From the IMG/VR virus record IMGVR_UViG_3300033233_000005: 18,124 nt of DNA; one strand, written 5' to 3'. Below are positions 1-15,188 of this stretch, in pieces (the first letter of the stretch is position 1; each line of letters opens with the position of its first letter). Made by a program: the position numbers and the translations under genes. The stretch comes from a virus (lineage: Duplodnaviria; Heunggongvirae; Uroviricota; Caudoviricetes). The notes beneath the pieces were generated by a model. That model made no database searches and had not been told where the DNA came from. It was given only the letters and a program-made list of their open reading frames with translations.

Positions 1-2406
1 AACACGAATGCTCCAGCGTTTTCAACCACTGGCATAACTGGCTCAACGCCATACTCTACAGGTAGGTTAACCGTTTCTGGTAGAACCCCATCATCAGGCA
101 CAGAGGACAGATACGTATTCATATCACATGTACCCGTAGTTAGAACCAAGTCAACATTTGATCCTACCCCAGCAGCGCCTAATCATCAAACCTCAGTGGG
201 GTCCGTAGTAACAGCCGCAAATAACCGTAATAAGCCAGTAACCGGCATTGACCAGAAATTGGGTCAGGCTCATGCGGATCATATAATCAATGGGTACCGC
301 ATATTTGTAGCTATCGGGGCGGGTTCTACTCTTGGCCCAACTGAAGTCTCATTCGATCCGGATGGAACACCTCGTCTAATTGCCGGTCTATTTACTGCGT
401 CTGAACCAGATTCTATTAATGCTATCTACATCGGCAGATTTACAATCACCAGCTTGAATGTTATAGCTATATTCGCATTGCCAGATAGCATTAGGCCACG
501 CGACCTGATGCAGTTCAGACCGTTGGAATCAACGCAGCTAGACACCGGCAATCCGACTACCATATATGCAGCCGGTCAGATTGTTAGCGGACAACAGCAT
601 ATTAATGCCTTCGGTACCGGATCTACATTGGACGCTAACAATCCACATAGACAGAGTATCTTCGATCTAGATGACGTCAGTGCCATCACGGGACAAGCCG
701 TTCAACCGATTGGAGATGTATTAACTACTGGTATAATAGACAAGGCGCAGGATAGAAACGCTATTATACCAACCAGCAGCACCGCAGTTCAGCCATCTCT
801 AGTAACAACAGGCAGTGCTACATACACCAGTGCTACATCGCTTGCTATAGTTACTGGAGGTATATTAACCACAACCACTATTGCAGCTGGTACTGTTATC
901 TCTAAGCGTGCTGAATTAGTAGCCGACCTCATATCTCTACCGATACAGGCGATTTACATAGACGGGACCAGAATTACCAAATTGCGCCCATTTATCCCTG
1001 GCTCTCTTGTTACTGCGGCAATACCGTTTGTTGGCACAGGACAACCAACGCTGATTGACGCCACTGGCACTTATACCTTATTTATAGCTAACCCTGACGC
1101 TGCCACTCGCACGTTACTAGGGCTGGCCGTAGATGAGGGACTAATAGGTAAGACTACAGAAGATATTTCAGCCGTGCGCAATACGATCGCGGTGGCCACA
1201 GTATATTGGGATTCTGCAACGGAAGTTTTACGGTACACGAACCTAACTGCTGTAATAACTACTGGCACGCCACCTACCGCCGATTTGCGTAGATTCGGAC
1301 TAGTCTCTACACCACAGATCTCAACGGAAGCTCTGTCCAGCGCGAGTAAGGGGTTGATGGCGAATCAGCATTTTGATAATCTTACCTCAGCCAATTCAGA
1401 CTTCAGATTCGGCTTTGCCAATTGGGTATACGCAGATGCTGATACTTCACCAGTATTTGGCGCTGGTAATATATCAGCAGTAGCATTCTTAAAGGCTGCC
1501 GGTGGTTTACCAGATCCACTTGGATTAACCAATCCGACTGGTATACCGGCACCGACGATCATTACGGATGCAGAATTATTAACCCAGGCCAATGCATACT
1601 ATGGCGTTAAATATACATTTGCACCAACACCACCAGCATTAAGTGTAGCAATACGCACATCAGTAGGTGGCATCAAACCGAATACTACATATACATTTTC
1701 GATGCAGATTAAAACACCAGCAACCAATCAAGTTAATGCAACAGTCGCTCTAACCAATGCCACTGGTGGTAGCCCCTATAGCAATAGACAAGACATGCGG
1801 TTCACACGCGACGACGACTATCATCGCGTTGCAGTTACGTTGCGTACCAATGGTACACCAGATATTACTACATCGACTGTGTATCTAGAGATAAAATTCG
1901 GCAATGACGGCAGCTTCGGTGTCTTTACGGCCAATCCAATATCCATATCCAGTATTATAATGACCGAGGGAGAATTTGTACTGGGTAATCTGGTAAGAAC
2001 CCCAGTTACATACAGTATCGGTTCAGCTAGCATCATCTCCACATCATTTACAGCAGGAACAGCCGACTCATTGCCGCTATCATTCGTATCAACCGGTCAG
2101 CACATGCTACTTAGAGCTGCAGCGTCTATCGACATAGAAGACCTAAGCGCCTTTACAAGTGTGATTACTCAGTATTTTCTACAATTGGTACTAGATGGCG
2201 GTGTTCTAGCAGCACAGAATTTTACCACAAGATATATGCTAAAGGTAACTGGCGTAAATGCTCAAGTGGAGGTGCCTATGCTATTGGCGTCTACTTTCTA
2301 TGTACCAGCAGGCACTCATAGCATGGTACTCAGAGCAATCCGCATCGCACAAAACACTGGTGTGTTTGTCGCTAGTAACATCAGATTGGATGCAACCACG
2401 CTATGA
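1..2406 (+). CDS. Tail fibre / virion structural protein with a C-terminal carbohydrate-binding-like (CBM/galactose-binding) domain; 5' end lies outside the window
   Basis: Frame 1 has no stop from base 1 (NTNAPAFSTTG...) to TGA 2404-2406, so the GTG at 196 is probably not the real start. The protein is rich in T/A/G/S beta sequence. The segment GIKPNTTYTFSMQIK...YHRVAVTLRT...ISISSIIMTEG matches the pattern of CBM-like tail-fibre domains. Confidence 0.7.
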   Translation, partial: NTNAPAFSTTGITGSTPYSTGRLTVSGRTPSSGTEDRYVFISHVPVVRTKSTFDPTPAAPNHQTSVGSVVTAANNRNKPVTGIDQKLGQAHADHIINGYRIFVAIGAGSTLGPTEVSFDPDGTPRLIAGLFTASEPDSINAIYIGRFTITSLNVIAIFALPDSIRPRDLMQFRPLESTQLDTGNPTTIYAAGQIVSGQQHINAFGTGSTLDANNPHRQSIFDLDDVSAITGQAVQPIGDVLTTGIIDKAQDRNAIIPTSSTAVQPSLVTTGSATYTSATSLAIVTGGILTTTTIAAGTVISKRAELVADLISLPIQAIYIDGTRITKLRPFIPGSLVTAAIPFVGTGQPTLIDATGTYTLFIANPDAATRTLLGLAVDEGLIGKTTEDISAVRNTIAVATVYWDSATEVLRYTNLTAVITTGTPPTADLRRFGLVSTPQISTEALSSASKGLMANQHFDNLTSANSDFRFGFANWVYADADTSPVFGAGNISAVAFLKAAGGLPDPLGLTNPTGIPAPTIITDAELLTQANAYYGVKYTFAPTPPALSVAIRTSVGGIKPNTTYTFSMQIKTPATNQVNATVALTNATGGSPYSNRQDMRFTRDDDYHRVAVTLRTNGTPDITTSTVYLEIKFGNDGSFGVFTANPISISSIIMTEGEFVLGNLVRTPVTYSIGSASIISTSFTAGTADSLPLSFVSTGQHMLLRAAASIDIEDLSAFTSVITQYFLQLVLDGGVLAAQNFTTRYMLKVTGVNAQVEVPMLLASTFYVPAGTHSMVLRAIRIAQNTGVFVASNIRLDATTL

Positions 2407-3956
2407 TAATAGAATTTGATACTACTACGCTAAGTGTGTTCGTTGCTGAGGCTGGGTCCGATGCTGCTACTATAGCCAATTTAAACACAAATAAACCAGC
2501 TAGCCACTCAGTACAGACGATAGCTGATGATACAGATGTATTGGATAATAAGTTCCAATTATCGATATTCATAGCCACCGTAGCAGGGCCAACATTAATA
2601 TCGGTAATCAGAAAGAATGTCGTAACGATTACTCCCATCCCTGGAACGATAAATTTAAACGATGTCTCAATTATACAGGTGCAGCTTAAGCAATCAGATG
2701 GCGTTACCAACCTAGCTGCCGTAAAGACAGTGACATTCAGTACCTCATTGGGTACATTAGCTGATGCTACAGTAACTACCGATGGGTCTGGATTCGCTCA
2801 AACGGCATTCAAACCAGCCAAGGGTGGCTCCTCCGTTATCGGCGCAACGTCGCCTGGGCTCATTGGCGCAGTAGTCACTGTAGTTATTAATATACCCACC
2901 ACGGCAACCGCACAGGGTTGGATAGAAACCGATGACATCAAGCTTGGAGCCATCACCGATGCTAAAGTAGCCAAGATCACTCCACCGGCCTGGTGGTTTA
3001 TCCCAGACATGTTCACCAGAGCCGCCTTTAATGCCAGCTATGATGCGGCCAGTATTAATTCAGTAGTGTCTGATGGAGAAGGATTTATTTATCTCAATGG
3101 ATTGGTTGCGGCTGTGCCAACCATCACGAAAATAGATATCAGGGACGGCAGTAACGCCGGTACGTTGGCATATACAAACCACAACCTAGCAGATGGGTAT
3201 GATTATATGGCTTATGATGGTGAAAATCTCTGGATACCATCTAATAACGATGTTTTAAAAGTAAGAACCAGAGATATGAGCTTGCAGGCTACAGTAAACA
3301 TTGGTACCGGCAAAGTTGAATCTGCAGTATGGGATGGTAGCTTTATCTATGTATGGTTGAATACGGCATCTGTGGTGTCCAGACTGTGGAAAGTCACCAA
3401 GGCCGGGACCAAGACTGCCATCGGTAGCCCCATCAACCCATTTGCAACTGCGGCACAATTTGCCACGGTGACAGTAGACAAGGATTTCATACATGTAAAT
3501 GGATTTACAGATGGTGCAGCATTCCTTAGTAGGACGACACCTGGATCTTATACCTCGTGGGCAGGTGGTTCCACTCTTGGATTTAGCGCCGCCACTACCG
3601 GCAAAGAATTATGGATTAGTGGAACTGCTGGTGTAAGTGTAATCCAAATCGATGGCACCATGCCAAATTATGGTACTATCGTAGCCACCATACCGGCAGC
3701 CACTATCAACCAGGTAACATTTTTGTACTTTGATGGTTCCAAGATATGGGCTACCAGAACTACCAGCAGTGGTTCCGGTACCGGTAGATATGTAAGCAAA
3801 TTATCCAGAACTGGTTCAACCATCAATATTGATCAAACGGTAGACCTGACCGCGACTGTCGAACCGTATCCAATAGCTTCTGACGGCACTAATCTGTATG
3901 TAGGAGCATTCGGTACCACCGCTGATGATGTTACTAAAATATTTATCGGGAGGTAA
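2403..3956 (+). CDS. Putative receptor-binding/tail protein: Big_1-type Ig-like domain plus C-terminal beta-propeller
   Basis: ATGA overlap with the upstream gene. VTFSTSLGTLADATVTTDGSGFAQTAFKPAKGGSSVIGATS is a Big_1/invasin-like Ig signature. IKLGAITDAKVA resembles a fibre spacer. Repeated blade motifs: YDGENLW, WDGSFIY, FDGSKIW, SDGTNLY. Confidence 0.7.
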   Translation: MIIEFDTTTLSVFVAEAGSDAATIANLNTNKPASHSVQTIADDTDVLDNKFQLSIFIATVAGPTLISVIRKNVVTITPIPGTINLNDVSIIQVQLKQSDGVTNLAAVKTVTFSTSLGTLADATVTTDGSGFAQTAFKPAKGGSSVIGATSPGLIGAVVTVVINIPTTATAQGWIETDDIKLGAITDAKVAKITPPAWWFIPDMFTRAAFNASYDAASINSVVSDGEGFIYLNGLVAAVPTITKIDIRDGSNAGTLAYTNHNLADGYDYMAYDGENLWIPSNNDVLKVRTRDMSLQATVNIGTGKVESAVWDGSFIYVWLNTASVVSRLWKVTKAGTKTAIGSPINPFATAAQFATVTVDKDFIHVNGFTDGAAFLSRTTPGSYTSWAGGSTLGFSAATTGKELWISGTAGVSVIQIDGTMPNYGTIVATIPAATINQVTFLYFDGSKIWATRTTSSGSGTGRYVSKLSRTGSTINIDQTVDLTATVEPYPIASDGTNLYVGAFGTTADDVTKIFIGR

Positions 3957-3959
3957 ATA

Positions 3960-4214
3960 GTGAAAGAGATTGCCGACCTAGTTCAGATGATTGGAATACC
4001 AGCATTAGTAATAGTATTCTATATATACAAAGACCTAACACAGGGCAATAAAGCTATAGAAACCAGCAACAAGATCATCCAGCTTCTGGAGCAGAATACC
4101 GCAGCCACCACCAAGGTAGTATCGGCGGTAGAAGGGGTCAGCGAGCGAATGACAGAAATGAGAGATGCCATTATCCAGACCAAGGCGATAATAGACATCA
4201 AAATGGGAAGGTAA
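3960..4214 (+). CDS. Holin-like small membrane protein (one N-terminal TM helix plus C-terminal coiled coil)
   Basis: SD GGGAGG before the GTG start. Hydrophobic segment IGIPALVIVFYIY followed by a heptad-like tail. Lies upstream of the lysin genes. Confidence 0.55.
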   Translation: MKEIADLVQMIGIPALVIVFYIYKDLTQGNKAIETSNKIIQLLEQNTAATTKVVSAVEGVSERMTEMRDAIIQTKAIIDIKMGR

Positions 4215-4215
4215 T

Positions 4216-4413
4216 ATGAGCATCACCATGATAGGCTCTGCGATTATATTAATACTCATAGTAATAGCAGAGGTATGTAGTAAAAAGAATGGCAATGGTA
4301 AGAACTTCAAAGATATCAATGCCAAGATAGAGACCTACAATATTGCCCAGAAAGCCGTACTGAAGCGGTTGGATACTCTTACGACCAGTCTAGAAACATC
4401 CCATAGGGGGTAG
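4216..4413 (+). CDS. Second holin-like small membrane protein
   Basis: SD GGAAGG. N-terminal TM segment MIGSAIILILIVIAEV with a polar coiled tail. Tandem with 3960-4214. Confidence 0.5.
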   Translation: MSITMIGSAIILILIVIAEVCSKKNGNGKNFKDINAKIETYNIAQKAVLKRLDTLTTSLETSHRG

Positions 4414-4417
4414 TACC

Positions 4418-4621
4418 TTGTCCAAGATACATACTCGTTTCTGTGACCTATGCGGCATGGATTTTCAATCCCCATCCCCATTTGCCCAAATATGCACCGA
4501 ATGCAAGAAAGTCAAGTTTAAAAAACCTATGAAAGGGGAAATGTATAGATTCCAGGGGATGAATGCATTATTGCCATCATTGCGTGTATTAGAGTTGGCT
4601 AAGAAAGAACTCAAGACTTGA
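4418..4621 (+). CDS. Small basic zinc-ribbon protein
   Basis: CDLC...CTEC, Lys-rich. TTG start preceded by AGGGGG. Confidence 0.55.
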   Translation: MSKIHTRFCDLCGMDFQSPSPFAQICTECKKVKFKKPMKGEMYRFQGMNALLPSLRVLELAKKELKT

Positions 4622-4647
4622 CCGGGGTATTTCAGGCATGGTAGACT
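4618..4647 (+). promoter_or_regulatory. Sigma70-type promoter upstream of the endolysin
   Basis: TTGACC (4618-4623), 18-nt spacer, TAGACT (4642-4647), with an extended -10 TG at 4639-4640. Confidence 0.5.
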
Positions 4648-4748
4648 ATACGCATAAATTATGGCAGCTAATCAGAACAATCTGGGACCGCATCAGACGG
4701 AAACCTCGCGCACCACAGGGTACAGCAGAGGGACTATGGGATCTATGA
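4638..4748 (+). CDS. Possible 36-aa basic amphipathic peptide (MVDYTHKLWQLIRTIWDRIRRKPRAPQGTAEGLWDL)
   Basis: Translated by hand. It fills the gap between 4621 and 4750 and ends TGA-T-ATG against the endolysin start. The SD is weak and the ATG lies inside the predicted promoter. Confidence 0.3.
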   Translation: MVDYTHKLWQLIRTIWDRIRRKPRAPQGTAEGLWDL

Positions 4749-4749
4749 T

Positions 4750-5490
4750 ATGGGTTGGTTAGATACTATATCTGGCTTAATAGGGGGTGCTGCAAAGACC
4801 CCAAGCCAACCGGTAGCTACCCCTAAACCCGTATCATCCCCTACCCCTCCTCCCCCAGCTCCTGCCAAATATCTGGATAAAACATTCATGGCGCGTATAA
4901 AAGCTAATATGGCGGATTACAAGAATGCCGCCAAGTTAACCAATATACCCTGGCAGGCTCTAGCCGCCATACATTTCAGGGAGGCAGAATTTGCCAGAAC
5001 AGTCAAAGAACCAGGTGGTCCCTTCCAATTGGACCCAGGTGGTGAGAAGAATGACCTTAATAAAAGGTGCTGGGACTATACTGTAAAGGTATGCAAGAAG
5101 TACGGCGCTAAGGCTACTGACATTAATACCAATTTCGATTCTGCTGCTCTAGTCGGTGCACACGAATTCGTGTCCAAGCCCGGAGCATCCCTATATGACG
5201 ATAAGGGTAATCCAATCAGAGAGAATATAGCTGATAGAATGTTCAGCTATAATGGTAGATCAAAGCACTACTCTGAAAATGAGCAGGTCGGACACGGTAA
5301 TACCACCCCAGCATGGGAGTGGTCCCCATACGTAAATAACAACCCTAATATGGGTAGGGTCCTCAAGATAGTAGCAACCCAGCTGAATGACAAGGGAGAA
5401 AGAATCACAATAGCTGGTACACCAGATCCCAGACCCGGCTCGATCATAATTTATGACGAGCTGATGTCCAGGGGATTTGAGCTAGTCTAG
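4750..5490 (+). CDS. Endolysin, lysozyme/SLT-like fold, with a Pro-rich N-terminal linker
   Basis: PWQALAAIHFRE (candidate catalytic Glu), GGPFQL and MFSYNG match the three lysozyme-superfamily motifs. Downstream of holin-like genes. Confidence 0.7.
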   Translation: MGWLDTISGLIGGAAKTPSQPVATPKPVSSPTPPPPAPAKYLDKTFMARIKANMADYKNAAKLTNIPWQALAAIHFREAEFARTVKEPGGPFQLDPGGEKNDLNKRCWDYTVKVCKKYGAKATDINTNFDSAALVGAHEFVSKPGASLYDDKGNPIRENIADRMFSYNGRSKHYSENEQVGHGNTTPAWEWSPYVNNNPNMGRVLKIVATQLNDKGERITIAGTPDPRPGSIIIYDELMSRGFELV

Positions 5491-5540
5491 GCGCTTCAGC
5501 CTAACTTACCTGTTAGTTTCCCTATAGGAGGAATTAACCT

Positions 5541-5663
5541 ATGGACATGAGATCCTTAACCCGACCTGAAATCAAGGTCATTTTTAATAACCGACGTGTG
5601 AGACGTTTATCTCATAAAGTCAGCGGGAGACAACCGTTGCGCTCTCCACGTCGGCCTAACTAA
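5541..5663 (+). CDS. 40-aa arginine-rich peptide (MDMRSLTRPEIKVIFNNRRVRRLSHKVSGRQPLRSPRRPN)
   Basis: Translated by hand. Strong SD AGGAGG at 5526-5531. Fills the gap between the two lysins. Confidence 0.55.
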   Translation: MDMRSLTRPEIKVIFNNRRVRRLSHKVSGRQPLRSPRRPN

Positions 5664-5693
5664 TAAAATAAATTAGAAAATAGGAGGATGCCG

Positions 5694-6413
5694 GTGAATA
5701 TACTACGACATCTAATAGTACTAGCAGCCATGACAGCGGCAACGGTTAAAGCTGATCCCACAGTAAGTGCCACTGCATTGTTTGAAAGCACGATCCATGC
5801 TCATTTTGACAATGCATTGCCCTGCTGGAAACCAGCCAGAGGCATACCATCTCTACGCACTATAGATAAAGAAATCAGGGCCACTATTGAGGCCGCCACT
5901 ACATTTTACGATAGTGATCCGGAGATGATGTATCTATTGTACAATATCGGGCTAAGTGAGGGTGGCGGGCATATTCGCAATAATGTTAAACCAGGAGAAA
6001 AGAGCTGGGGATGGACGTGCATGACGATACCAGAAGTGCGTAGAGTATGCAAGAAATATGAATGGCTTAAGCAGATATGCCCCAAGAGAGATGTAGAAGT
6101 ACAGGAAAAATTAGATGCCGATCCTAGATTTTGTATGCTTATGACGGCGGCCACTATGAGAATTTACCAGAATGAATGCAAAGGTGATTATATCAATGCC
6201 TTAATGATATACAAACATGGAGAAAGGGGATTGCTTGCTGCTATCAATAAATTACGCAGAGAGAAACCAAATGCTCCAATGACAGAATTGTATGAATGGA
6301 AGAAATATATAGGATTATTGGACTGGCTACATTGCATCAGAGACAGGGTATTGGTAGACTCGATTATAACCTGCGGATGTATGGCGGCCGAGGAGGCCAC
6401 CCGTGTTAAATAA
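5694..6413 (+). CDS. Secreted lytic-transglycosylase (SLT)-like protein
   Basis: SD AGGAGG abuts the ATG at 5688, so GTG 5694 is the better start. Signal peptide MNILRHLIVLAAMTAATVKA/D. IGLSEGG (candidate catalytic Glu), GWTCM (GLMQ-equivalent), DPRFC and ALMIYKHG (ALAAYNAG-equivalent). Nine Cys. Confidence 0.6.
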   Translation: MNILRHLIVLAAMTAATVKADPTVSATALFESTIHAHFDNALPCWKPARGIPSLRTIDKEIRATIEAATTFYDSDPEMMYLLYNIGLSEGGGHIRNNVKPGEKSWGWTCMTIPEVRRVCKKYEWLKQICPKRDVEVQEKLDADPRFCMLMTAATMRIYQNECKGDYINALMIYKHGERGLLAAINKLRREKPNAPMTELYEWKKYIGLLDWLHCIRDRVLVDSIITCGCMAAEEATRVK

Positions 6414-7011
6414 ATTAATTCATTCTGTCACAACGATAGCGATAGTAATATTATCTATTATGTTGGTCATTAAAACCAAACAGTTCAATGTAGAGCAGGA
6501 CAAGAACTTATCCAGTGCTGGTAGCATAGAATCGCTAAAGAAGGAACTAAAATTTAATTCGGATACAGTAGCAGCATTAAAGATCGAAAATGGTAGGCTG
6601 ATTATATTAACAAAGGATAAAAATGGCAATGTGGTGCCTCAACATCCATATGTACCACCAGAGGGTGGAGTGAGAGTTAGAGTAGATGGCCCAGTAGTAT
6701 CTGGTACGACCACCGGACAGCCGAGGGTAGTTATAGATATCAAAAACAAAGGTTTTACCTTCAAGCCAGGTATCGGGATGGTATACTCTAGCAAAATATA
6801 TCCTGAATTTGATATCAAATTCGCTTATTGGAATAGATATAGTGTCAAGGTTGGTACTACCCTCGACTTTGTAGACGCAGCGATCACTAGACACGTAGAC
6901 GACTTGATACCATGGGTCAATCTACAGAATCTGGAGATACAGCTAGGCGGCGGCATAAATTATATCGATGCAATCAGACGTATTATGTTTGGAATACGTA
7001 TTAACGGATAA
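6403..7011 (+). CDS. Membrane-anchored protein with amphipathic beta-strand C-terminus (spanin candidate)
   Basis: SD GAGGAGG. N-terminal TM SVTTIAIVILSIMLVI. The C-terminal half has alternating polar/hydrophobic strands (FTFKPGIGMVY, LEIQLGGGINY, IMFGIRING). Last gene of the lysis cluster. Confidence 0.5.
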   Translation: MLNKLIHSVTTIAIVILSIMLVIKTKQFNVEQDKNLSSAGSIESLKKELKFNSDTVAALKIENGRLIILTKDKNGNVVPQHPYVPPEGGVRVRVDGPVVSGTTTGQPRVVIDIKNKGFTFKPGIGMVYSSKIYPEFDIKFAYWNRYSVKVGTTLDFVDAAITRHVDDLIPWVNLQNLEIQLGGGINYIDAIRRIMFGIRING

Positions 7012-7041
7012 TTGATATGTATACTCTGGATACGTTAGAAT
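7012..7041 (+). promoter_or_regulatory. Sigma70-type promoter, probably giving a leaderless mRNA for 7048
   Basis: TTGATA (7012-7017), 18-nt spacer, TAGAAT (7036-7041). The ATG is 6 nt downstream and has no SD. Confidence 0.5.
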
Positions 7042-7047
7042 AAATCC

Positions 7048-7308
7048 ATGAAGGGCATAGTTACCATGACAGCCATCGATGCTGAGGATAGAACAGCGGA
7101 TCTTACAATATCTGTGTCCTCTGATGCCAATGTATTGCTTTCTACACATAAGATACTGGTGAATATAGATACTTTCTCAGAAGCGATAGTGATAGACCGC
7201 ATGCGTGGTCTACTACTCGATGAGATAACTAACGCATCGGCTATCCCGCTTACTCAAGCTCAGCTTGATGACATGATACTCGGTCTACAAGTAGTGGTCC
7301 CAGGTTAA
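7048..7308 (+). CDS. Hypothetical acidic protein, probably virion-associated
   Basis: 86-aa ORF coupled to the next gene (TAA-A-ATG). Confidence 0.6.
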   Translation: MKGIVTMTAIDAEDRTADLTISVSSDANVLLSTHKILVNIDTFSEAIVIDRMRGLLLDEITNASAIPLTQAQLDDMILGLQVVVPG

Positions 7309-7309
7309 A

Positions 7310-8638
7310 ATGTCGCATCAGATCGAACACAAACCGTATGAACTAATTAAAGCTGCCGACATAGATCGGATACTGGCGCTTATTCAGAACGGCATTTTCC
7401 AATCGCCATCAGCCATTAGAGCTTTATTGACCGGTCAGATTTCCATATTTGATCTGGACCCGACATTGCAGGCTTTCTTATCTGTTGTTCCATTTGAATC
7501 GAATGCCATCGGTGATGGCGTAACCACCACATTTATATTGACTGCCATACCAACGAGTGGAACCGACGAGGTATTTATAAACGGTATCTTACAACAGAAT
7601 GGATCTGATTATACAATCACTGGCACTAATGCCATATTCGTTTCCGCTCCTTTACTTGGTGATATCGTAATAATTAAATATAAATCCGCTCAGGCCCTAA
7701 TTGTGTTCGTGGTGAATTCACTCGACATTCCATATAAGAACATTATAAACACCCAATACTCATTAACACACATATTCATTTATGGCATTAATGAGACTAC
7801 TTCCGATATTGAAGTGGCTAAATTCGATCCATTGTCATTTACCCAAGTCGGACCAGCGGTGAATGTCAATGCTAGCCTCATCAGCAACAATGTAACTACA
7901 CAAGCTGGTGGATACCTATGGGCAACTGGTGCAGCTGGTCTAATTACGGACCCCAAGCATCAGATCACCAGGATAGACCCAAGCACCATGGCTTCTACCA
8001 TTTTCCCTGCAACAGTAGATACATCAGCTACCGTCGCGTCTATCACCACCGATGGAGGCTTTGTTTATGCATTCTTGGCTGGTGGAACACTAGTCCCCAA
8101 CTCGATAGCTAAGATAAATATGGCCGGGTCCCCAGTTGGTGCTATACCATCAGGATTTGCTCCTGGACCGATTGGTACTATCGACATGGCTATAAATACC
8201 GCTGGATTCTTATTCGTGGCGTATACCATCAATGGCCAGATTCGTAGATACGATACGACATTGGGAACCGTTTTAAATATCTACACGTTTACCAATCCAA
8301 TCAGAATCCTACCAGTAAATGACAAGATCTACGTATTAGACGGTACCACCAATACATTGTCTTCTATCTCAGCAACCAACGTAGTGACCGATATCATTAC
8401 CTTCACATTTACACCAACCGACATGATGTTTGATGGTGCTGATCTTTGGGTATCAACGGGTGACGTACTTAGAAAGATGGATAAGAACGGCACAATATCA
8501 AGCACTATCACGCCAGCGACTGGCCAAACGATTAGAGACATCACGTCTGGACTAGGTTTCGTATGGACGACGTATTCTAATGACACTAATGCCGGGCCGA
8601 ATATCACTAAGATATTCCCCGGACTCCCAACACCGTAG
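7310..8638 (+). CDS. Putative virion protein: phage structural beta-domain plus C-terminal beta-propeller (paralogue of 2403-3956)
   Basis: GDGVTTTFILT...VFINGILQ...DYTITG...APLLGDIVIIKY is a module typical of phage tail/baseplate proteins. Blade motifs TDGGFVY and FDGADLW. Ends ITKIFPG, compared with VTKIFIG in 2403-3956. Confidence 0.7.
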   Translation: MSHQIEHKPYELIKAADIDRILALIQNGIFQSPSAIRALLTGQISIFDLDPTLQAFLSVVPFESNAIGDGVTTTFILTAIPTSGTDEVFINGILQQNGSDYTITGTNAIFVSAPLLGDIVIIKYKSAQALIVFVVNSLDIPYKNIINTQYSLTHIFIYGINETTSDIEVAKFDPLSFTQVGPAVNVNASLISNNVTTQAGGYLWATGAAGLITDPKHQITRIDPSTMASTIFPATVDTSATVASITTDGGFVYAFLAGGTLVPNSIAKINMAGSPVGAIPSGFAPGPIGTIDMAINTAGFLFVAYTINGQIRRYDTTLGTVLNIYTFTNPIRILPVNDKIYVLDGTTNTLSSISATNVVTDIITFTFTPTDMMFDGADLWVSTGDVLRKMDKNGTISSTITPATGQTIRDITSGLGFVWTTYSNDTNAGPNITKIFPGLPTP

Positions 8639-8650
8639 GAGGTGAGCTAG

Positions 8651-9028
8651 ATGAGCATGTTCGCTGGTATATTCACTCCAGACATCGAAGTGATCCCGTT
8701 CAGTTCTGCTACTGCCGTTATCAGAAAGGCTGTACGCATCAATGATACTGCTACAGTAACGGAAACTGACCGTGTCTGTGTAGTCGCCGCCGATATCACC
8801 GGGAATGGCGCTACAGGAACCATCAAAGTCGAAGTTGGTGTCGGAGATACGGTAGCTGGATTCACGGCTGACCAGATAATCGGATATGCATCAGCCGTCA
8901 ACGGCACCACCAATCAGATATTAATTCTAAGTGTGGTCGGCAAGAGCAAGACTATCAGAATTACTACCACTGGTACTCTGATCGGAGCTGTCAGAATCCA
9001 GGGTAAGACCACACAGATCGATCCATAA
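8651..9028 (+). CDS. Small beta-rich structural protein (hypothetical)
   Basis: SD GGAGGTG. V/T/G/I-rich composition like its structural neighbours. Confidence 0.6.
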   Translation: MSMFAGIFTPDIEVIPFSSATAVIRKAVRINDTATVTETDRVCVVAADITGNGATGTIKVEVGVGDTVAGFTADQIIGYASAVNGTTNQILILSVVGKSKTIRITTTGTLIGAVRIQGKTTQIDP

Positions 9029-9040
9029 AGGAAAATTCTA

Positions 9041-9718
9041 ATGGCTTGGACGATTAAATCACAGGAACGGTACGAGGATCAGGTTAAATCCTATCTAGAC
9101 AAAGTCAAGGCTGACATAGCATTCGGCATACAATTGGCTGAAACAGAAGTTCCTAAACTAGCCGAGGGCAAAGTGAATGAAGACAGCCTCCGTGGTGCAC
9201 TAAATAGCATCAATGAAGGCATAGAAGCCTTAACCCAAGCCAGACATATAGTGGAAACATATCCGAATGAGGTTATGGAATCTAGCCTATTTAGTACCCC
9301 GCTGGAAATGCTGGCTAAAGCCGTATTTATATTAGAGGTGAATGTAGACGCCGTCACCAATGAAGATACTGTGCTAGATAGACAGGCACATCCGGCTGCT
9401 ATAACTCGTGCCATCGCAGATTTAAAGGCAAGCTTAGACACGATAAATAAGATTTGGATACCACAGTTCTTCACTCAACCAGGTGAAGGTATCCCACAGG
9501 AATATGAAACCGGAATGTGGAATACAATGCGCAAGCTCATTCGCAATCTTGAGCAGACCAAGGAAAAGAGCAAGACTGAATTGCTTCAGGAAGAGATTTA
9601 TGGGGTACCCGGCATCAAATGGAAATTTAGAAAGCCGCGCAGGATGACCTTGCCCCCACATTCACAGCAGATGGAGCGTGAACGGGAGAAGCGTAGCGTA
9701 CCTAAGAAGTTCTTCTAA
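9041..9718 (+). CDS. Hypothetical helical protein with basic C-terminus
   Basis: 225-aa ORF with SD AAGGA. No motif recognised. Confidence 0.65.
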   Translation: MAWTIKSQERYEDQVKSYLDKVKADIAFGIQLAETEVPKLAEGKVNEDSLRGALNSINEGIEALTQARHIVETYPNEVMESSLFSTPLEMLAKAVFILEVNVDAVTNEDTVLDRQAHPAAITRAIADLKASLDTINKIWIPQFFTQPGEGIPQEYETGMWNTMRKLIRNLEQTKEKSKTELLQEEIYGVPGIKWKFRKPRRMTLPPHSQQMEREREKRSVPKKFF

Positions 9719-11320: not shown

Positions 11321-12553
11321 GTGGGACAGCCGGGTCGTAGACCCAAGATCTCCCCTGAAACAGTAGTAAAGATCTTAGAAGCCCACAAGAATAGTACCTT
11401 CCCCAGTGCCAAAAGGATGGGGGAAGCATTCGGCATATCTAGGCATGCCGTTGAAGACACACTAAGAAGGCACGGAATGGGCAAGAGCAATTTTAATCCC
11501 CACACTGTACAGGCTGTACTAGCACTGTTAGATTCTGGTTTAACTCATGAACAGATAGGCCAGCAACTGGGCTTAGCTAAAAGCTCAGTCAGTCAGGCAG
11601 TATATGAGAATCAGACCAGCATACTAAAACCAATTGAGCAGGAATACCACAAAACCGTCGCACACAGACAGTACATAGCGGCCAGATGGAAACCGGGTAG
11701 ATACGTCGTAGGTAATGACTCTCATATCAAATTTCATTCTAAAGAATGCTTAGACGCTATCATGGCATTAAAAGGCGATTTTGATGGATTCATAATGGCT
11801 GGTGATTTAATAGACGGATATTGGGTATCGTCGTTCCGCAAGAGCACTTACGCTCCTTTGTCACAGGAAGTAGCAGTTGCCACAGACATAATGAAGATGT
11901 TCGCCAAGAAATTTGGCCGGGTGCTCTACTTCCATGGGAACCATGAGGAGAGACTATGGAAGTACTTACTAACAGAAGGTGAAGGTCTAGTCAAAACCGC
12001 TGGACCAGCGGCTGAGATACTAATCAAAGCCTTTGAAGACATCCGGCACTGGTACTTCGGTAACATGCCAGGAGTACTGGTGCATTACGGCTGGTTCGTC
12101 CAGATTGGTAAGACTGTCATTTCACATGCCGACTTGTACAGTCAAATGCAGGGTAGAACAGTACAGAACATCCTTGAACACTTCTTAAATCGTGCCAGAG
12201 AATGGCAGACAGGCGAGATAGACGCTGTATTAGAGGCACACTTACATCGCCATTCTGGACCACAACGCAAATGGGGACGATATCTATGGGAATTACCCTG
12301 CATGTGCGGACCACTCGACTATCAGATGGGAGCCAGAGCCAGCAAGGGACAGACGGACACCGGTTACAGTATAATCGTCATAAATAAAGACGGCACTTTT
12401 AATTTTAATGAAAGCAGGAGCTATTTGGTTGATGTTACGCCACCCAATATGCCAGATCCGGAATCTGAAATGATAGAAGTTGAGAAACCGGATTTTGAAA
12501 GACCGAAGATTATGTTTGGTAACGATAGGATAGTACTAAAAGACAAGAAATAG
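11321..12553 (+). CDS. Calcineurin-like metallophosphoesterase with two N-terminal HTH domains
   Basis: All five MPE motifs are present in order: ND-S-H, AGDLID, GNHEER, SH, AHLH. The N-terminus has GRRPKI (resolvase/Hin-like arm) with SAKRMGEAFGISRHAV and LTHEQIGQQLGLAKSSVSQ as HTHs. Confidence 0.85.
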   Translation: MGQPGRRPKISPETVVKILEAHKNSTFPSAKRMGEAFGISRHAVEDTLRRHGMGKSNFNPHTVQAVLALLDSGLTHEQIGQQLGLAKSSVSQAVYENQTSILKPIEQEYHKTVAHRQYIAARWKPGRYVVGNDSHIKFHSKECLDAIMALKGDFDGFIMAGDLIDGYWVSSFRKSTYAPLSQEVAVATDIMKMFAKKFGRVLYFHGNHEERLWKYLLTEGEGLVKTAGPAAEILIKAFEDIRHWYFGNMPGVLVHYGWFVQIGKTVISHADLYSQMQGRTVQNILEHFLNRAREWQTGEIDAVLEAHLHRHSGPQRKWGRYLWELPCMCGPLDYQMGARASKGQTDTGYSIIVINKDGTFNFNESRSYLVDVTPPNMPDPESEMIEVEKPDFERPKIMFGNDRIVLKDKK

Positions 12554-12561
12554 GAGGTCCG

Positions 12562-12816
12562 ATGCCTTATATTAAACCAGATGAAAGAAAGGCATTCGAT
12601 GAAGCAATAGCTCGCCTTGGGAATATTACCACTCCAGGCGAGTTAAACTATGTCATCACTAGGCTATGCCATCAATATTTGCTAAATAAAGGCACAAACT
12701 ATGACAATCTAAATGCTATAACTGGAGTTTTAGAATGTTCTAAACTAGAAATAACACGGAGATTGACAGCGCCCTATGAAGATAATAAAATCAAAATTAA
12801 CGGAGATGTATTCTAG
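12562..12816 (+). CDS. Conserved small phage protein (resembles DUF6899, recognised from memory)
   Basis: SD AGGAGG. MPYI...GELNYVIT...GVLECSKLE..RR..APYED.KI..NGDV pattern. Confidence 0.7.
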   Translation: MPYIKPDERKAFDEAIARLGNITTPGELNYVITRLCHQYLLNKGTNYDNLNAITGVLECSKLEITRRLTAPYEDNKIKINGDVF

Positions 12817-13303
12817 TCGCAAATTACAATGGGTAAACAATAATCGTGACAAGATGCGCGATTATCAGAACAAGTATTACATCAAACACAAAGAACAGAT
12901 TAATCAAAGAGATAAACAACGACGAATTATCGCTCGTAAACATAAGAAATGTAAGTTTTGTAGTAAACCATGCCTCGATTTAGATAGACGTATATATTGT
13001 AGCGAGAAATGTTTTAACGAAGCTAGTAAAATCATTACAGACAAACGCAGGAGGCAACGGGCACAATGGTATTCTGAGTATAAAAGGTCATGCGGTGGGT
13101 GCGTTAAGTGCGGATATTCGAAATGTTTAGCAGCATTGGGGTTCCATCACACAAAAGATAACAAATCGTACAGTCCAGCTAGTATGAAAAATGTGGCCAA
13201 ACGAAATATCATAAAAGAACTGAATAAATGCATTGTCTTGTGCGCCAATTGTCATATGGAGGAACACGAAATGAGTAAAATAAAGGAGAATGGTGATGTC
13301 TAA
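12806..13303 (+). mobile_element. Free-standing HNH homing endonuclease gene
   Basis: CVKCGYSKCLAALGFHH...ELNKCIVLCANCHMEEH is an HNH with Zn ligands. Basic N-terminus with a further CKFC...C...C cluster. AT-rich. The likely start is ATG 12806 inside the upstream gene's end (the track gives 12776). Confidence 0.85.
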
Positions 13304-13760
13304 AAATTTGTCGCTGTACATATCACATCCTTTATCGGGATTAACTGTAGAAGAAGTTGACGAATGGTATGAACGTTGGATCAACAGATTTAAAGATAAA
13401 GGCTTCAGAGTTTTTGATCCTATATCAATGCAATCAGCATTAAAAAATATGAAGAATACGACATTAGGACACACAGTACCCGATGGCCTAGGTGGCATAA
13501 CTAATGATAAAGCGATTTTTGAACGCGATAAATGGGCCGTAACACAGGCAGATATTATATTAGTAGACTTATCTACAGCTACTAAAGTGTCTATCGGTTG
13601 TCTATCTGAATTAATTATAGCCCACACATTAAATAAACACACTATTACTATCATGGATAAACACAATTGTCATTGGCACAGTTTTATCATTCAAGCATCT
13701 GCTATAATATTAGATACTATGGATGAAGCATCGCATTATTTAGAGGCCTTAAACAAATGA
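13296..13760 (+). CDS. Nucleoside 2-deoxyribosyltransferase / DNPH1-MilB-like nucleotide N-glycosidase
   Basis: LYISHPLSG, VFDP, RDKWAVTQADIILVDL and SIGCLSE (catalytic Glu) match the NDT-like Rossmannoid fold. SD AAGGAG is 7 nt before ATG 13296. Confidence 0.8.
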   Translation: MSKNLSLYISHPLSGLTVEEVDEWYERWINRFKDKGFRVFDPISMQSALKNMKNTTLGHTVPDGLGGITNDKAIFERDKWAVTQADIILVDLSTATKVSIGCLSELIIAHTLNKHTITIMDKHNCHWHSFIIQASAIILDTMDEASHYLEALNK

Positions 13761-13858
13761 GAGATGCATTAAAACACAGGCTACATAACAAACGATATAG
13801 GGATAAACACAAAATCCTTGGTATGTGTTCAAAATGCGTGATATTCATCTCCATTTAA
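13757..13858 (+). pseudogene. Probable remnant of a second homing endonuclease (33 aa: MRDALKHRLHNKRYRDKHKILGMCSKCVIFISI)
   Basis: Translated by hand. ATGA-coupled to the NDT stop. The basic RYRDKHK...CSKC resembles RKHKKCKFCSKPC of the intact HNH. Starts MRD like the deaminase. Confidence 0.45.
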
Positions 13859-14739
13859 GTGGTGCCACCCCACCCGAGATTTTATGGGAGATCGTGCGTG
13901 AGAGCGGATTTAAGACCGGTTCCAAGAATTATTGGCATTTTGCTCAGAATATCACGATGGACCGCACCAAGGTCAAAGACCTTGATTCGTATCTCCAGGT
14001 GCTGCATGCTATCGAAGAGGCTCAGAGCAGTCCATTAGCCGTTCAGGAATCGGTTTATAGTGCCTACCGCGCCTCTTATATGTATGGTTGTACTTATATG
14101 GAACTTAGGTGGAACTGTGTTAAGCGTTCTCAGAAGGGACGCATCGATCTGGATTCCCTGATCGTGGCTGCACGCGCTGGTTACGAACGGGCCAAGATGA
14201 TTTACGGCATAGAAGGCGGCATGATCCTCTGTTTGGGCCGCGATTGCTCAGAAGAAGAAAATGCGGCATTGTTTAAAAAAGCGATCCAATATAATGACAA
14301 AGGTATTATTGGGTTAGACATAGCTGGCCCCGAACATAACAGCATCCCCAAGGAATTCGTGCACTATTATAAAGCTGCTAATGCATCCAAGATGATTACC
14401 ACCTGTCATGTTGGTGAAACTGACCATAACAAGGTAGAAGATGAAATCGCATTCGTGTTAGAGAAATTGCAACCACAGCGTATTGGCCATGGAGTACAGA
14501 TAGTTAAATATCCAAAACTATTGAAGAAGGCTGCTAGCATGGGTATCCATTTCGAAATATGTATTTCATCCAATCTGGTTACCAGAGCAGTAGCTGACCT
14601 ACAAGAATTTAGAGATATATTTAGGACGTTTGAAAACAATGGTATAAACTTTTCTATCAACACAGATGCCTTGTTCCCTCTTGGCACCAATATCAAGAAG
14701 GAAAACGAATTGTTCCAACAGATTAAAGAATTGGCGTAA
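13834..14739 (+). CDS. add: Adenosine/AMP deaminase family metallo-amidohydrolase
   Basis: DIHLHLSG, GLDIAGPE, CHVGE, RIGHGV, EICISSN and INTDA are the ADA-family motifs in order. ATG 13834 (MRDIHLH) is preferred over GTG 13825. The substrate is uncertain, so the symbol marks the family only. Confidence 0.9.
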   Translation: MRDIHLHLSGATPPEILWEIVRESGFKTGSKNYWHFAQNITMDRTKVKDLDSYLQVLHAIEEAQSSPLAVQESVYSAYRASYMYGCTYMELRWNCVKRSQKGRIDLDSLIVAARAGYERAKMIYGIEGGMILCLGRDCSEEENAALFKKAIQYNDKGIIGLDIAGPEHNSIPKEFVHYYKAANASKMITTCHVGETDHNKVEDEIAFVLEKLQPQRIGHGVQIVKYPKLLKKAASMGIHFEICISSNLVTRAVADLQEFRDIFRTFENNGINFSINTDALFPLGTNIKKENELFQQIKELA

Positions 14740-15188
14740 TGGGGAGATCAAAAATGGATCAGAAACTAGACGACAAATTAGTCAAAGACTTCCCACTATT
14801 GTATAGGGATAGAAATGAAGATATGTCTAAGACCTGTATGTGCTGGGGATTTACATGCGATGATGGCTGGTTTAAGATAGTCTACGATGCTTCCAAGCAG
14901 ATAGAGAAATTAATAACGCACAGCCTTAAGTACAGAGAATTTAAGGCCGCTCAAGTTAAAGAAAAATATGGCACTCTGCGGTTTTATATGAACCTATCTG
15001 ATGCCAGGGTAGAAAAGATCATAGACAAGGCTGAGGCATTATCTGCCAAGACTTGCGAAATGTGCGGTAAGCCAGGCAAATTGTCTTCTACTGCACAGAA
15101 TCGAGGCTGGTTAAAAACTCTATGCGATTCCTGCAGAAAGGCTCACAAATATCATATCGTAACAAAGCAAACTGGTATTGGACCTTAA
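14739..15188 (+). CDS. Conserved phage protein of the GW...QVKEKFG.LRFY type with C-terminal Zn ribbon; function unknown
   Basis: CDDGWF, QVKEKYGTLRFY, TCEMCGKPG...WLKTLC..C. TAATG-coupled to the deaminase. Confidence 0.75.
   Translation: MGRSKMDQKLDDKLVKDFPLLYRDRNEDMSKTCMCWGFTCDDGWFKIVYDASKQIEKLITHSLKYREFKAAQVKEKYGTLRFYMNLSDARVEKIIDKAEALSAKTCEMCGKPGKLSSTAQNRGWLKTLCDSCRKAHKYHIVTKQTGIGP

Follow-up and report, generated by a model that had tools for sequence, protein, structure and literature searches.

A phage adenosine-deaminase-family enzyme without the two substrate-anchoring aspartates is a candidate (d)AMP deaminase linked to a DNPH1-like gene

Introduction

What does an adenosine deaminase (ADA) homolog act on when it has kept the residues needed for catalysis and replaced both aspartates that anchor the nucleoside in the classical enzymes? 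The question is raised by an open reading frame (ORF) at positions 13834-14739 of the IMG/VR virus record IMGVR_UViG_3300033233_000005 (Caudoviricetes), a stretch of 18,124 nucleotides that we call the window. By analogy with characterized enzymes, we give roughly an even chance to the reading that the encoded protein deaminates a 5'-phosphorylated adenine nucleotide, deoxyadenosine monophosphate (dAMP) first of all, and that, with the product of an upstream gene of the nucleoside deoxyribosyltransferase (NDT) superfamily, it disposes of deoxyadenosine (dA) nucleotides in a phage whose DNA would contain 2-aminoadenine (Z). We present below the evidence from the sequence, the predicted structure, the gene neighborhood and the relatives of the two proteins, and then weigh this reading against four others.

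A zinc deaminase with two replaced aspartates

The ORF is stop-free, encodes 301 aa, and matches the Pfam family A_deaminase (PF00962) over residues 3-293 (E 1.6e-40, 139.6 bits for a gathering cut-off of 27). We preferred the ATG at 13834 over the GTG at 13825 as the start, the N-termini of the homologs being of the form M-[KR]-D-x-H. The protein carries the motifs H5-L-H7 followed by S9-G10 (HLHLSG), H192-V-G-E195, G218-H219-G220 and N276-T-D278-A279. We aligned it with solved ADA structures, both as a single sequence and as a 22-sequence profile. Residues H5, H7, H192, E195, H219 and D278 align with the ADA metal ligands (HxH, H214 and D295) and with the catalytic E217 and H238. In both alignments, S9 stands opposite Asp19 of mouse ADA (HLDG; HVHLDG) and A279 opposite Asp296 (NTDD). 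The original prediction, made from the letters of the sequence, had described exactly this combination, and it was borne out: the zinc and catalytic residues (HLH, HVGE, GHG, NTD) are intact, and both anchoring aspartates are replaced. The top structure match of the single sequence is 1fkx, titled mouse ADA D296A mutant.

An AlphaFold model built from the family alignment has a predicted local distance difference test score (pLDDT) of 94.1 and a predicted template-modelling (pTM) score of 0.91. The prediction had called for a model to be superposed on ADA; doing so gave a TM score of 0.87 to the mouse enzyme, in a range of 0.86-0.89 for mouse and bacterial ADA at around 20% identity. In structure comparison, the model lies at much the same distance from adenine deaminases, Plasmodium ADA, MAPDA/ADAL and Cad1. 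The protein scores under the cut-offs of all the NCBIfam ADA equivalogs, of which TIGR01430 comes closest (153.3 vs 216.55 bits) and the others, PRK09358 included, reach 31-102 bits for cut-offs of 412-549. In PADLOC it has a weak match to the deaminase part of CARF-ADA only (residues 68-250, E 2.8e-14), and a megablast of the window DNA against phage records found nothing. To judge from its sequence, the protein is a zinc deaminase of the ADA superfamily with intact metal and catalytic residues, and is predicted to be active.

A signature shared by the whole branch

To place the two replacements in the family, we searched 5.8 billion proteins for homologs, obtained 355 matches and aligned the best 120 of them (47-75% identity, 270-337 aa) with MAFFT. 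Position 9, at the Asp19 site, is Ser in 117 out of 117 ungapped sequences, the other three being gapped there. Position 279, at the Asp296 site, is Ala in 85 of the 120 homologs, Ser in 28, Asn in four, and Thr and His in one each; it is never Asp. Since Ser is kept at the first site and Asp never occurs at the second, both replacements are a signature of the branch and not a private mutation of the window protein. Residues H5, H7, H192, E195, H219 and D278 show no variation wherever they are present. The alignment also conserves H58 (114/120), N94 (119), K97 and R98 (120 each) and S99 (117), and a further set of positions is invariant or nearly so: Q64-S65-x-P67, D105, D107, A164-G165, E241, C243, S246-N247, T285 and E290. 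Read from the alignment, this is the pattern of purifying selection on an altered pocket and not of decay.

In a FastTree phylogeny of the family, the window protein groups with P0002-P0005 and P0009 (support 0.98), and the alphaproteobacterial members make up a derived cluster of their own. The commonest phylum in the nearest ESM Atlas cluster, among members with a known phylum, is Uroviricota. We found no fused or longer forms of this branch, the only such protein to turn up being an unrelated kinase-ADA protein, and a degenerate DNA pattern for ELRWNPxKRSQ had no match in IMG/VR.

Comparison with characterized deaminases

Canonical ADA (mouse 1A4M, Escherichia coli/Salmonella Add 6N9M) has the same TIM-barrel, zinc ligands and catalytic Glu, His and Asp as the window enzyme, which however lacks Asp19 and Asp296, is around 30-50 residues shorter and falls under the equivalog cut-offs. 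MAPDA/ADAL (Arabidopsis 6IJM/6IJN, human 8QCH) shares the fold (TM 0.81-0.86) and has a neutral residue at the Asp19 site; like the window enzyme, it has a shortened loop after strand 2 that carries a basic residue. It differs in being eukaryotic and N6-methyl-specific, in keeping and requiring Asp296, and in being only around 20% identical. Arabidopsis MAPDA grips the 5'-phosphate of N6-methyl-AMP with the backbone of Leu16/Asn17 and the side chain of Asn17, which occupies the Asp19-equivalent position; His65, Thr98 and Lys100 are further phosphate ligands (PMC6451127). The same study reports that the loop from Lys100, after strand 2, is much shorter than that of mouse ADA, that Phe300 touches the methyl group of the substrate, and that the retained Asp296 matters, since D296A gives no measurable activity (PMC6451127).

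In the branch of the window deaminase, the loop after strand 2 is likewise short. We take S9 to correspond to Asn17 of MAPDA and N94 to Thr98, with K97/R98 near Lys100 and H58 near His65, in a register that combines a hidden Markov model alignment to ADA with the MAPDA motif and is one of sequence and not of superposed coordinates. In this register S9, H58, N94, K97 and R98 are likely counterparts of the MAPDA phosphate ligands. A 56-residue query of the PDB aimed at MAPDA gave no useful match.

The second informative relative is KomA, from the Kongming system of E. coli NCTC13216, an ADA-family enzyme that has dAMP as its best substrate, is weaker on dADP, AMP and ADP, and is inactive on dATP (bioRxiv 10.1101/2024.12.20.629578). 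Its sequence in Table S1, read by eye, shows ELHVHLNG close to the N-terminus and, in the last strand, VICSDNP. KomA is thus, as in the window branch, a stand-alone PF00962 protein of about 300-330 aa with both ADA aspartates replaced. It has Asn/Asn where the window branch has Ser/Ala(Ser), and, again by eye from Table S1, it is without the N-x-x-K-R-S loop of that branch. Together with KomB and KomC, KomA makes a dITP alarm signal in bacteria, whereas the window deaminase has an NDT-fold partner and a phage setting; neither the HAM1-like KomB nor the SIR2-like KomC was present among the searched neighbors in the window and 20+ loci.

Across the comparison of MAPDA and KomA, a neutral residue at position 19 goes with a 5'-phosphate on the substrate. 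The loss of the second Asp is compatible with plain dAMP as the substrate, because KomA, without this Asp, deaminates ordinary dAMP. The proposal that the substrate is 5'-phosphorylated, made in the original prediction, thereby gains support by comparison, from MAPDA, from KomA and from the conserved H58, N94, K97 and R98. Its companion proposal, a substrate that lacks N7 or is modified there, is not needed to account for the pocket, given that KomA reads CSDNP.

Other members of the superfamily are further away. Several distant loci (L021-L029) read HxHxEG and SDDP, with Glu at position 19 and the second Asp in place, unlike the HxHxSG and TD[A/S] of the window branch, and we take them to be of the adenine-deaminase type (the Pa0148 / AAur1117 signature HxHxEG, SDDP). 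CARF-ADA (Cad1/CAAD) and RdrB have, respectively, a CARF fusion and a large RADAR-type architecture with RdrA, whereas the window protein is a 301-aa single domain. Two ADA homologs of uncultured Clostridium (L019, 7953-8984, and L020), 27-29% identical, keep HLHLDG and read STDN; this pattern, in which the second Asp alone is changed to Asn, is intermediate between ADA and KomA.

An NDT-like partner encoded upstream

The upstream ORF (Table 1) encodes an NDT-superfamily protein whose match to PF05014 is weak and under the cut-off (E 5.3e-6). Its family comprises 511 matches, the majority of which have PF05014, and 38 homologs all share Y10, D80, S101, G103 and E107. The model of the protein (pLDDT 89) has human DNPH1, the D. 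psychrophila NDT and MilB as top Foldseek matches, which is the set published for DmtZ. The protein has a Ser six residues ahead of the catalytic Glu, where NDT 7o62 has an Asp. In Rcl/DNPH1, the corresponding Ser accommodates a phosphate. An AAGGAG lies 7 nt upstream of the ATG at 13296.

The gene pair recurs. In the sediment metagenome contigs L036, L037 and L050, an NDT-like gene (41-53% identical to that of the window) lies directly upstream of a deaminase gene (72-74%), and in L036 and L037 the two overlap by 4 nt. Among the proteins of the homolog searches, equal lengths of the longest contig link P0003, the deaminase of L037, with P0123 (1,870 bp) and P0004, the deaminase of L036, with P0125 (4,986 bp); on the same grounds P0056 and P0128 (35,560 bp) may be a further and more distant pair. 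In the window, a 33-codon frame (13757-13858) begins at an ATG that overlaps the stop codon of the NDT-like gene (ATGA); its product starts with M-R-D, the first residues of the deaminase itself, whose start lies 77 nt downstream in a different frame. Since the deaminase start of L036 and L037 overlaps the NDT-like stop in the same way, around 77 nt may have been inserted or shifted between the two genes of the window, although chance is also possible.

A pattern scan of IMG/VR returned no relatives of the NDT-like protein. It has no detectable sequence similarity to gp48 and gp51 of phage Ghobes (gp58, which has a faint NDT-like match, was outside this comparison) and no tblastn match in the Ghobes genome; a Pfam search of Ghobes does not recognise DmtZ. 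The closest relatives in cultured phages are found in Tunturiibacter phage Tunturi_5 (L056, 3995-4507), next to a ribonucleotide reductase gene, and in Bradyrhizobium phage BDU-MI-1 (L057, 3995-4462), next to genes for a dNMP kinase and a T5-type A1 protein.

A PurZ-type gene in a contig with the deaminase branch

Two routes by which Z phages remove dA nucleotides give the gene pair a context. In one, DutZ converts dATP to dAMP and the NDT-family enzyme DmtZ splits dAMP into adenine and deoxyribose 5-phosphate; this route belongs to the PurZ0 phages Ghobes and Wayne (PMC12884076). Z-modified contigs are enriched in PF05014 NDTs that prefer dA (bioRxiv 10.1101/2025.10.22.683976). The other route, in PurZ phages, relies on DatZ. 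The purpose that we propose for the window module is that of both routes: to remove dA nucleotides irreversibly and leave Z in the place of A. The DutZ/DmtZ route and the module of the window both have an NDT-superfamily enzyme with DNPH1-like features, but the described DutZ/DmtZ and DatZ routes are without a deaminase and the window module has one. The term deaminase is absent from both recent papers on the Z pathway (PMC12884076; bioRxiv 10.1101/2025.10.22.683976). To our knowledge, the means of dATP exclusion described to date are all hydrolytic, namely DatZ, MazZ, DutZ and DmtZ.

The sole IMG/VR contig found with the deaminase branch (G006, the source of locus L001; 67 kb, 56% complete) carries a 406-aa gene of the PurA family that reads GSSGKGK, with Ser replacing Asp13 of PurA, which is the PurZ signature. 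Its best matches are the PurZ of phages of the phiVC8, SH-Ab 15497 and S-2L types. Near it are the family A polymerase gene of Table 1, a DnaB-type helicase, ThyX, a primase, a ribonucleotide reductase-like gene and a thymidylate-kinase-like gene, and the contig also has a dUTPase-fold gene. A DatZ-type HD gene was not found in this 56%-complete fragment. The deaminase of G006 reads HLHLSS and CTDS and belongs to a different subclade from the window protein; it is flanked by a gene for a TauE/SafE-type membrane protein.

Bacterial members of the branch

Among species-representative genomes, the branch occurs in metagenome-assembled genomes (MAGs) of uncultured gut "Rickettsiales/Alphaproteobacteria" of 0.8-1.2 Mb. 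In all five MAGs analyzed (G001-G005, the sources of L002, L003, L005, L011 and L013), the deaminase is the sole PF00962 gene. Its neighbors are variable and of the housekeeping kind, i.e., ribosomal L25, TrcR, GcvH, flavodoxin and a cytidylyltransferase-like gene. PurH, IMPDH, PurA and AdoHcy hydrolase (AhcY) had no match above the cut-off in any of the five, nor had the TLC transporter, searched as a control; a PNP/Pfs-family gene was found in one, and phosphoribosyltransferase matches were few. The MAGs are incomplete and each single absence is therefore weak, but the pattern is the same in all five. Because the purine interconversion genes are undetected throughout, the bacterial deaminase is not a classical salvage ADA that feeds IMP into the synthesis of GMP. 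We rejected a role of these homologs in A-to-G purine interconversion, since none of the five MAGs has a detected IMPDH, PurA or PurH. We also considered a deaminase of S-adenosylhomocysteine, methylthioadenosine or 5'-deoxyadenosine, since AhcY is undetected and PNP/Pfs occurs in one MAG, and set it aside because it has no other support and fits ill with the gene pairing in phages.

A proposed deaminating route for the removal of deoxyadenosine nucleotides

We favor a 5'-phosphorylated substrate because position 19 is Asn in both MAPDA (Asn17) and KomA and because H58, N94, K97 and R98 are conserved. The proposed phage role in dA disposal follows from the NDT-fold partner conserved upstream and from the PurZ-type gene of G006. 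In the mechanism that we propose, Ser9 together with H58, N94, K97 and R98 would form a MAPDA-like phosphate site, and the N7 contact of the Asp296 type would be dispensable, as in KomA. The pocket would then fit an adenine nucleotide that carries a 5'-phosphate, most likely dAMP and possibly AMP or dADP, and dAMP would yield dIMP. A dUTPase-fold enzyme would convert dATP to dAMP, after which the deaminase and the DNPH1/DmtZ-like N-glycosidase would act in series, from dAMP to dIMP and on to hypoxanthine and deoxyribose 5-phosphate; alternatively, both would act on dAMP in parallel. Either way dATP would not be re-formed, and Z would take the place of adenine in DNA. In this sense the module would parallel DatZ or DutZ/DmtZ, but work by deamination.

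Several points weigh against this reading. The equivalences at the phosphate site come from a register of sequences and the MAPDA motif. Ala cannot supply the hydrogen bond to N7 that the Asn of KomA might keep, and in MAPDA the D296A change abolishes measurable activity (PMC6451127). Phage-made dIMP could feed the formation of dITP. The NDT-like gene was not found in the 56%-complete G006, and no gene of the PurA/PurZ family was detected in Tunturi_5 or BDU-MI-1. Since relatives of the NDT-like protein occur in phages without a detected PurA/PurZ gene, its family is general equipment of the nucleotide pool and is not specific to Z phages. Finally, the MAGs of around 1 Mb have this branch as their sole PF00962 gene, and it is hard to see what a (d)AMP deaminase would do for them.

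One may go further, and more tentatively, to a third route of adenine exclusion in Z phages, in which a Dut-like enzyme would give dAMP, the deaminase dIMP, and the glycosidase would split it, the purine ring passing through host salvage into guanine nucleotides and from there into Z; the HxHxSG/TD[A/S] enzymes would then be a new class of (d)AMP deaminases in bacteria and phages. We see this extended scheme as possible but doubtful. Z-genome phages must keep dATP out of replication, and a route based on deamination, if true, would bring a further class of enzyme to this task and offer a new component to those who engineer Z-DNA in cells. The HxHxSG/TD[A/S] signature defines a sizeable and uncharacterized branch of an enzyme family that has been studied intensively and, with KomA and MAPDA, may offer a simple sequence rule to tell nucleotide from nucleoside deaminases. 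It also raises the question of why gut alphaproteobacteria of around 1 Mb without detected purine interconversion genes retain one such deaminase.

Alternative substrates

The deaminase might instead act on the free base. The NDT-fold enzyme would release adenine from dAMP, as DmtZ and phage NDTs do (PMC12884076; bioRxiv 10.1101/2025.10.22.683976), and the deaminase would turn it into hypoxanthine, which would block its salvage to dATP. The tight linkage of the gene pair fits such a division of labor, and the loss of the ribose-contacting Asp19 suits a base-only substrate. Yet the adenine-deaminase signature (HxHxEG and SDDP, as in L021-L029) is matched at neither site, a free base leaves unexplained the conserved K97/R98 and H58/N94 at the MAPDA-like phosphate position, and G006 has the deaminase with no NDT-like gene in its sequenced part. 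We consider this alternative unlikely, though not negligible.

A substrate modified at N6, or another non-standard adenine nucleotide such as N6-methyl-AMP or N6-methyl-dAMP, seems to us decidedly unlikely. The enzyme would then serve a bacterial clean-up of turnover products and would have been borrowed by phages, which suits a gene that is the only PF00962 member of MAGs without detected purine interconversion. The pocket resembles that of MAPDA in the neutral residue at position 19, in the short loop after strand 2 and in the aromatic F281, three positions past the catalytic Asp, which recalls Phe300 of MAPDA. However, MAPDA keeps Asp296 and is killed by D296A (PMC6451127), the identity to MAPDA/ADAL structures is around 20% and no nearer than that to ADA, and the neighborhoods show no link to a methyltransferase.

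The name and fold of the family, and the databases that annotate its relatives as adenosine deaminases, would make the protein an ordinary adenosine or deoxyadenosine deaminase, carried by the phage as an auxiliary salvage gene and acting for example on dA released by DatZ. This is improbable in view of the replacement of both nucleoside-anchoring aspartates across the branch and of scores far under every NCBIfam equivalog cut-off (153 vs 216 bits at best), and DatZ was not found in the 56%-complete G006.

Least of all do we expect a role in defense or counter-defense on a signaling nucleotide or a 7-deaza or N7-modified purine, including the cyclic or oligonucleotide signal that the original prediction had entertained: Ala or Ser does replace the N7-binding Asp and PADLOC does give its weak CARF-ADA match, but that match covers the deaminase part only, the protein has no CARF or other sensor domain, fusions were not found in the branch, the bacterial members lie in housekeeping neighborhoods and not in defense islands, KomA acts on plain dAMP without the same Asp, and no genes for 7-deazapurine synthesis were among the window ORFs searched.

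Neighboring genes

The features of the window around the deaminase, and those of G006 cited above, are listed in Table 1.

Table 1. Coordinates of the deaminase, its neighbors in the window and the PurZ-associated genes of G006
Feature	Location	Strand	Evidence or remark
Adenosine-deaminase-family enzyme, HxHxSG / [C/N]TD[A/S] branch, predicted (d)AMP deaminase	window 13834..14739	+	PF00962, model, signature
NDT-superfamily protein, DNPH1/DmtZ-like, 154 aa, predicted deoxynucleoside-5'-monophosphate N-glycosidase	window 13296..13760	+	weak PF05014, fold
HNH endonuclease, probable mobile insertion	window 12776..13303	+	phrog_2255 E 1e-18
DUF6899 protein, 84 aa, possible third module member	window 12562..12816	+	PF21840 E 4e-29
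Helix-turn-helix and calcineurin-like metallophosphoesterase, 410 aa, upstream	window 11321..12553	+	PF00149 E 2.1e-5, phrog_221 E 1.4e-12
Cys-rich 149-aa ORF (CxC...C, CxxC...CxxC)	window 14739..15188	+	ATG overlaps deaminase stop by one base
PurZ-type gene, GSSGKGK, divergent	L058 (G006:C1:22000-41500) 7838-9058	-	best matches phiVC8-type PurZ
Family A polymerase, 997 aa	L058 9732-12725 (-)		near PurZ-type gene, one 203-aa ORF between

In L037, a homolog of the DUF6899 protein (48% identical, 113-418) lies directly upstream of the NDT-like ORF (415-876) and overlaps it. Because the HNH gene is absent from this junction, its presence between the DUF6899 and NDT-like genes of the window probably reflects the insertion of a homing endonuclease into the module. 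No homolog of the metallophosphoesterase was seen on the short related contigs. The Cys-rich ORF has no match in Pfam, PHROG, NCBIfam or PADLOC and no homolog in L036-L050. Further upstream, positions 1-9718 of the window hold a series of large plus-strand ORFs that include a CBM_4_9 domain and weak matches to Big_1 and to a tail-fibre PHROG; these ORFs are probably genes for tail fibres or host recognition.

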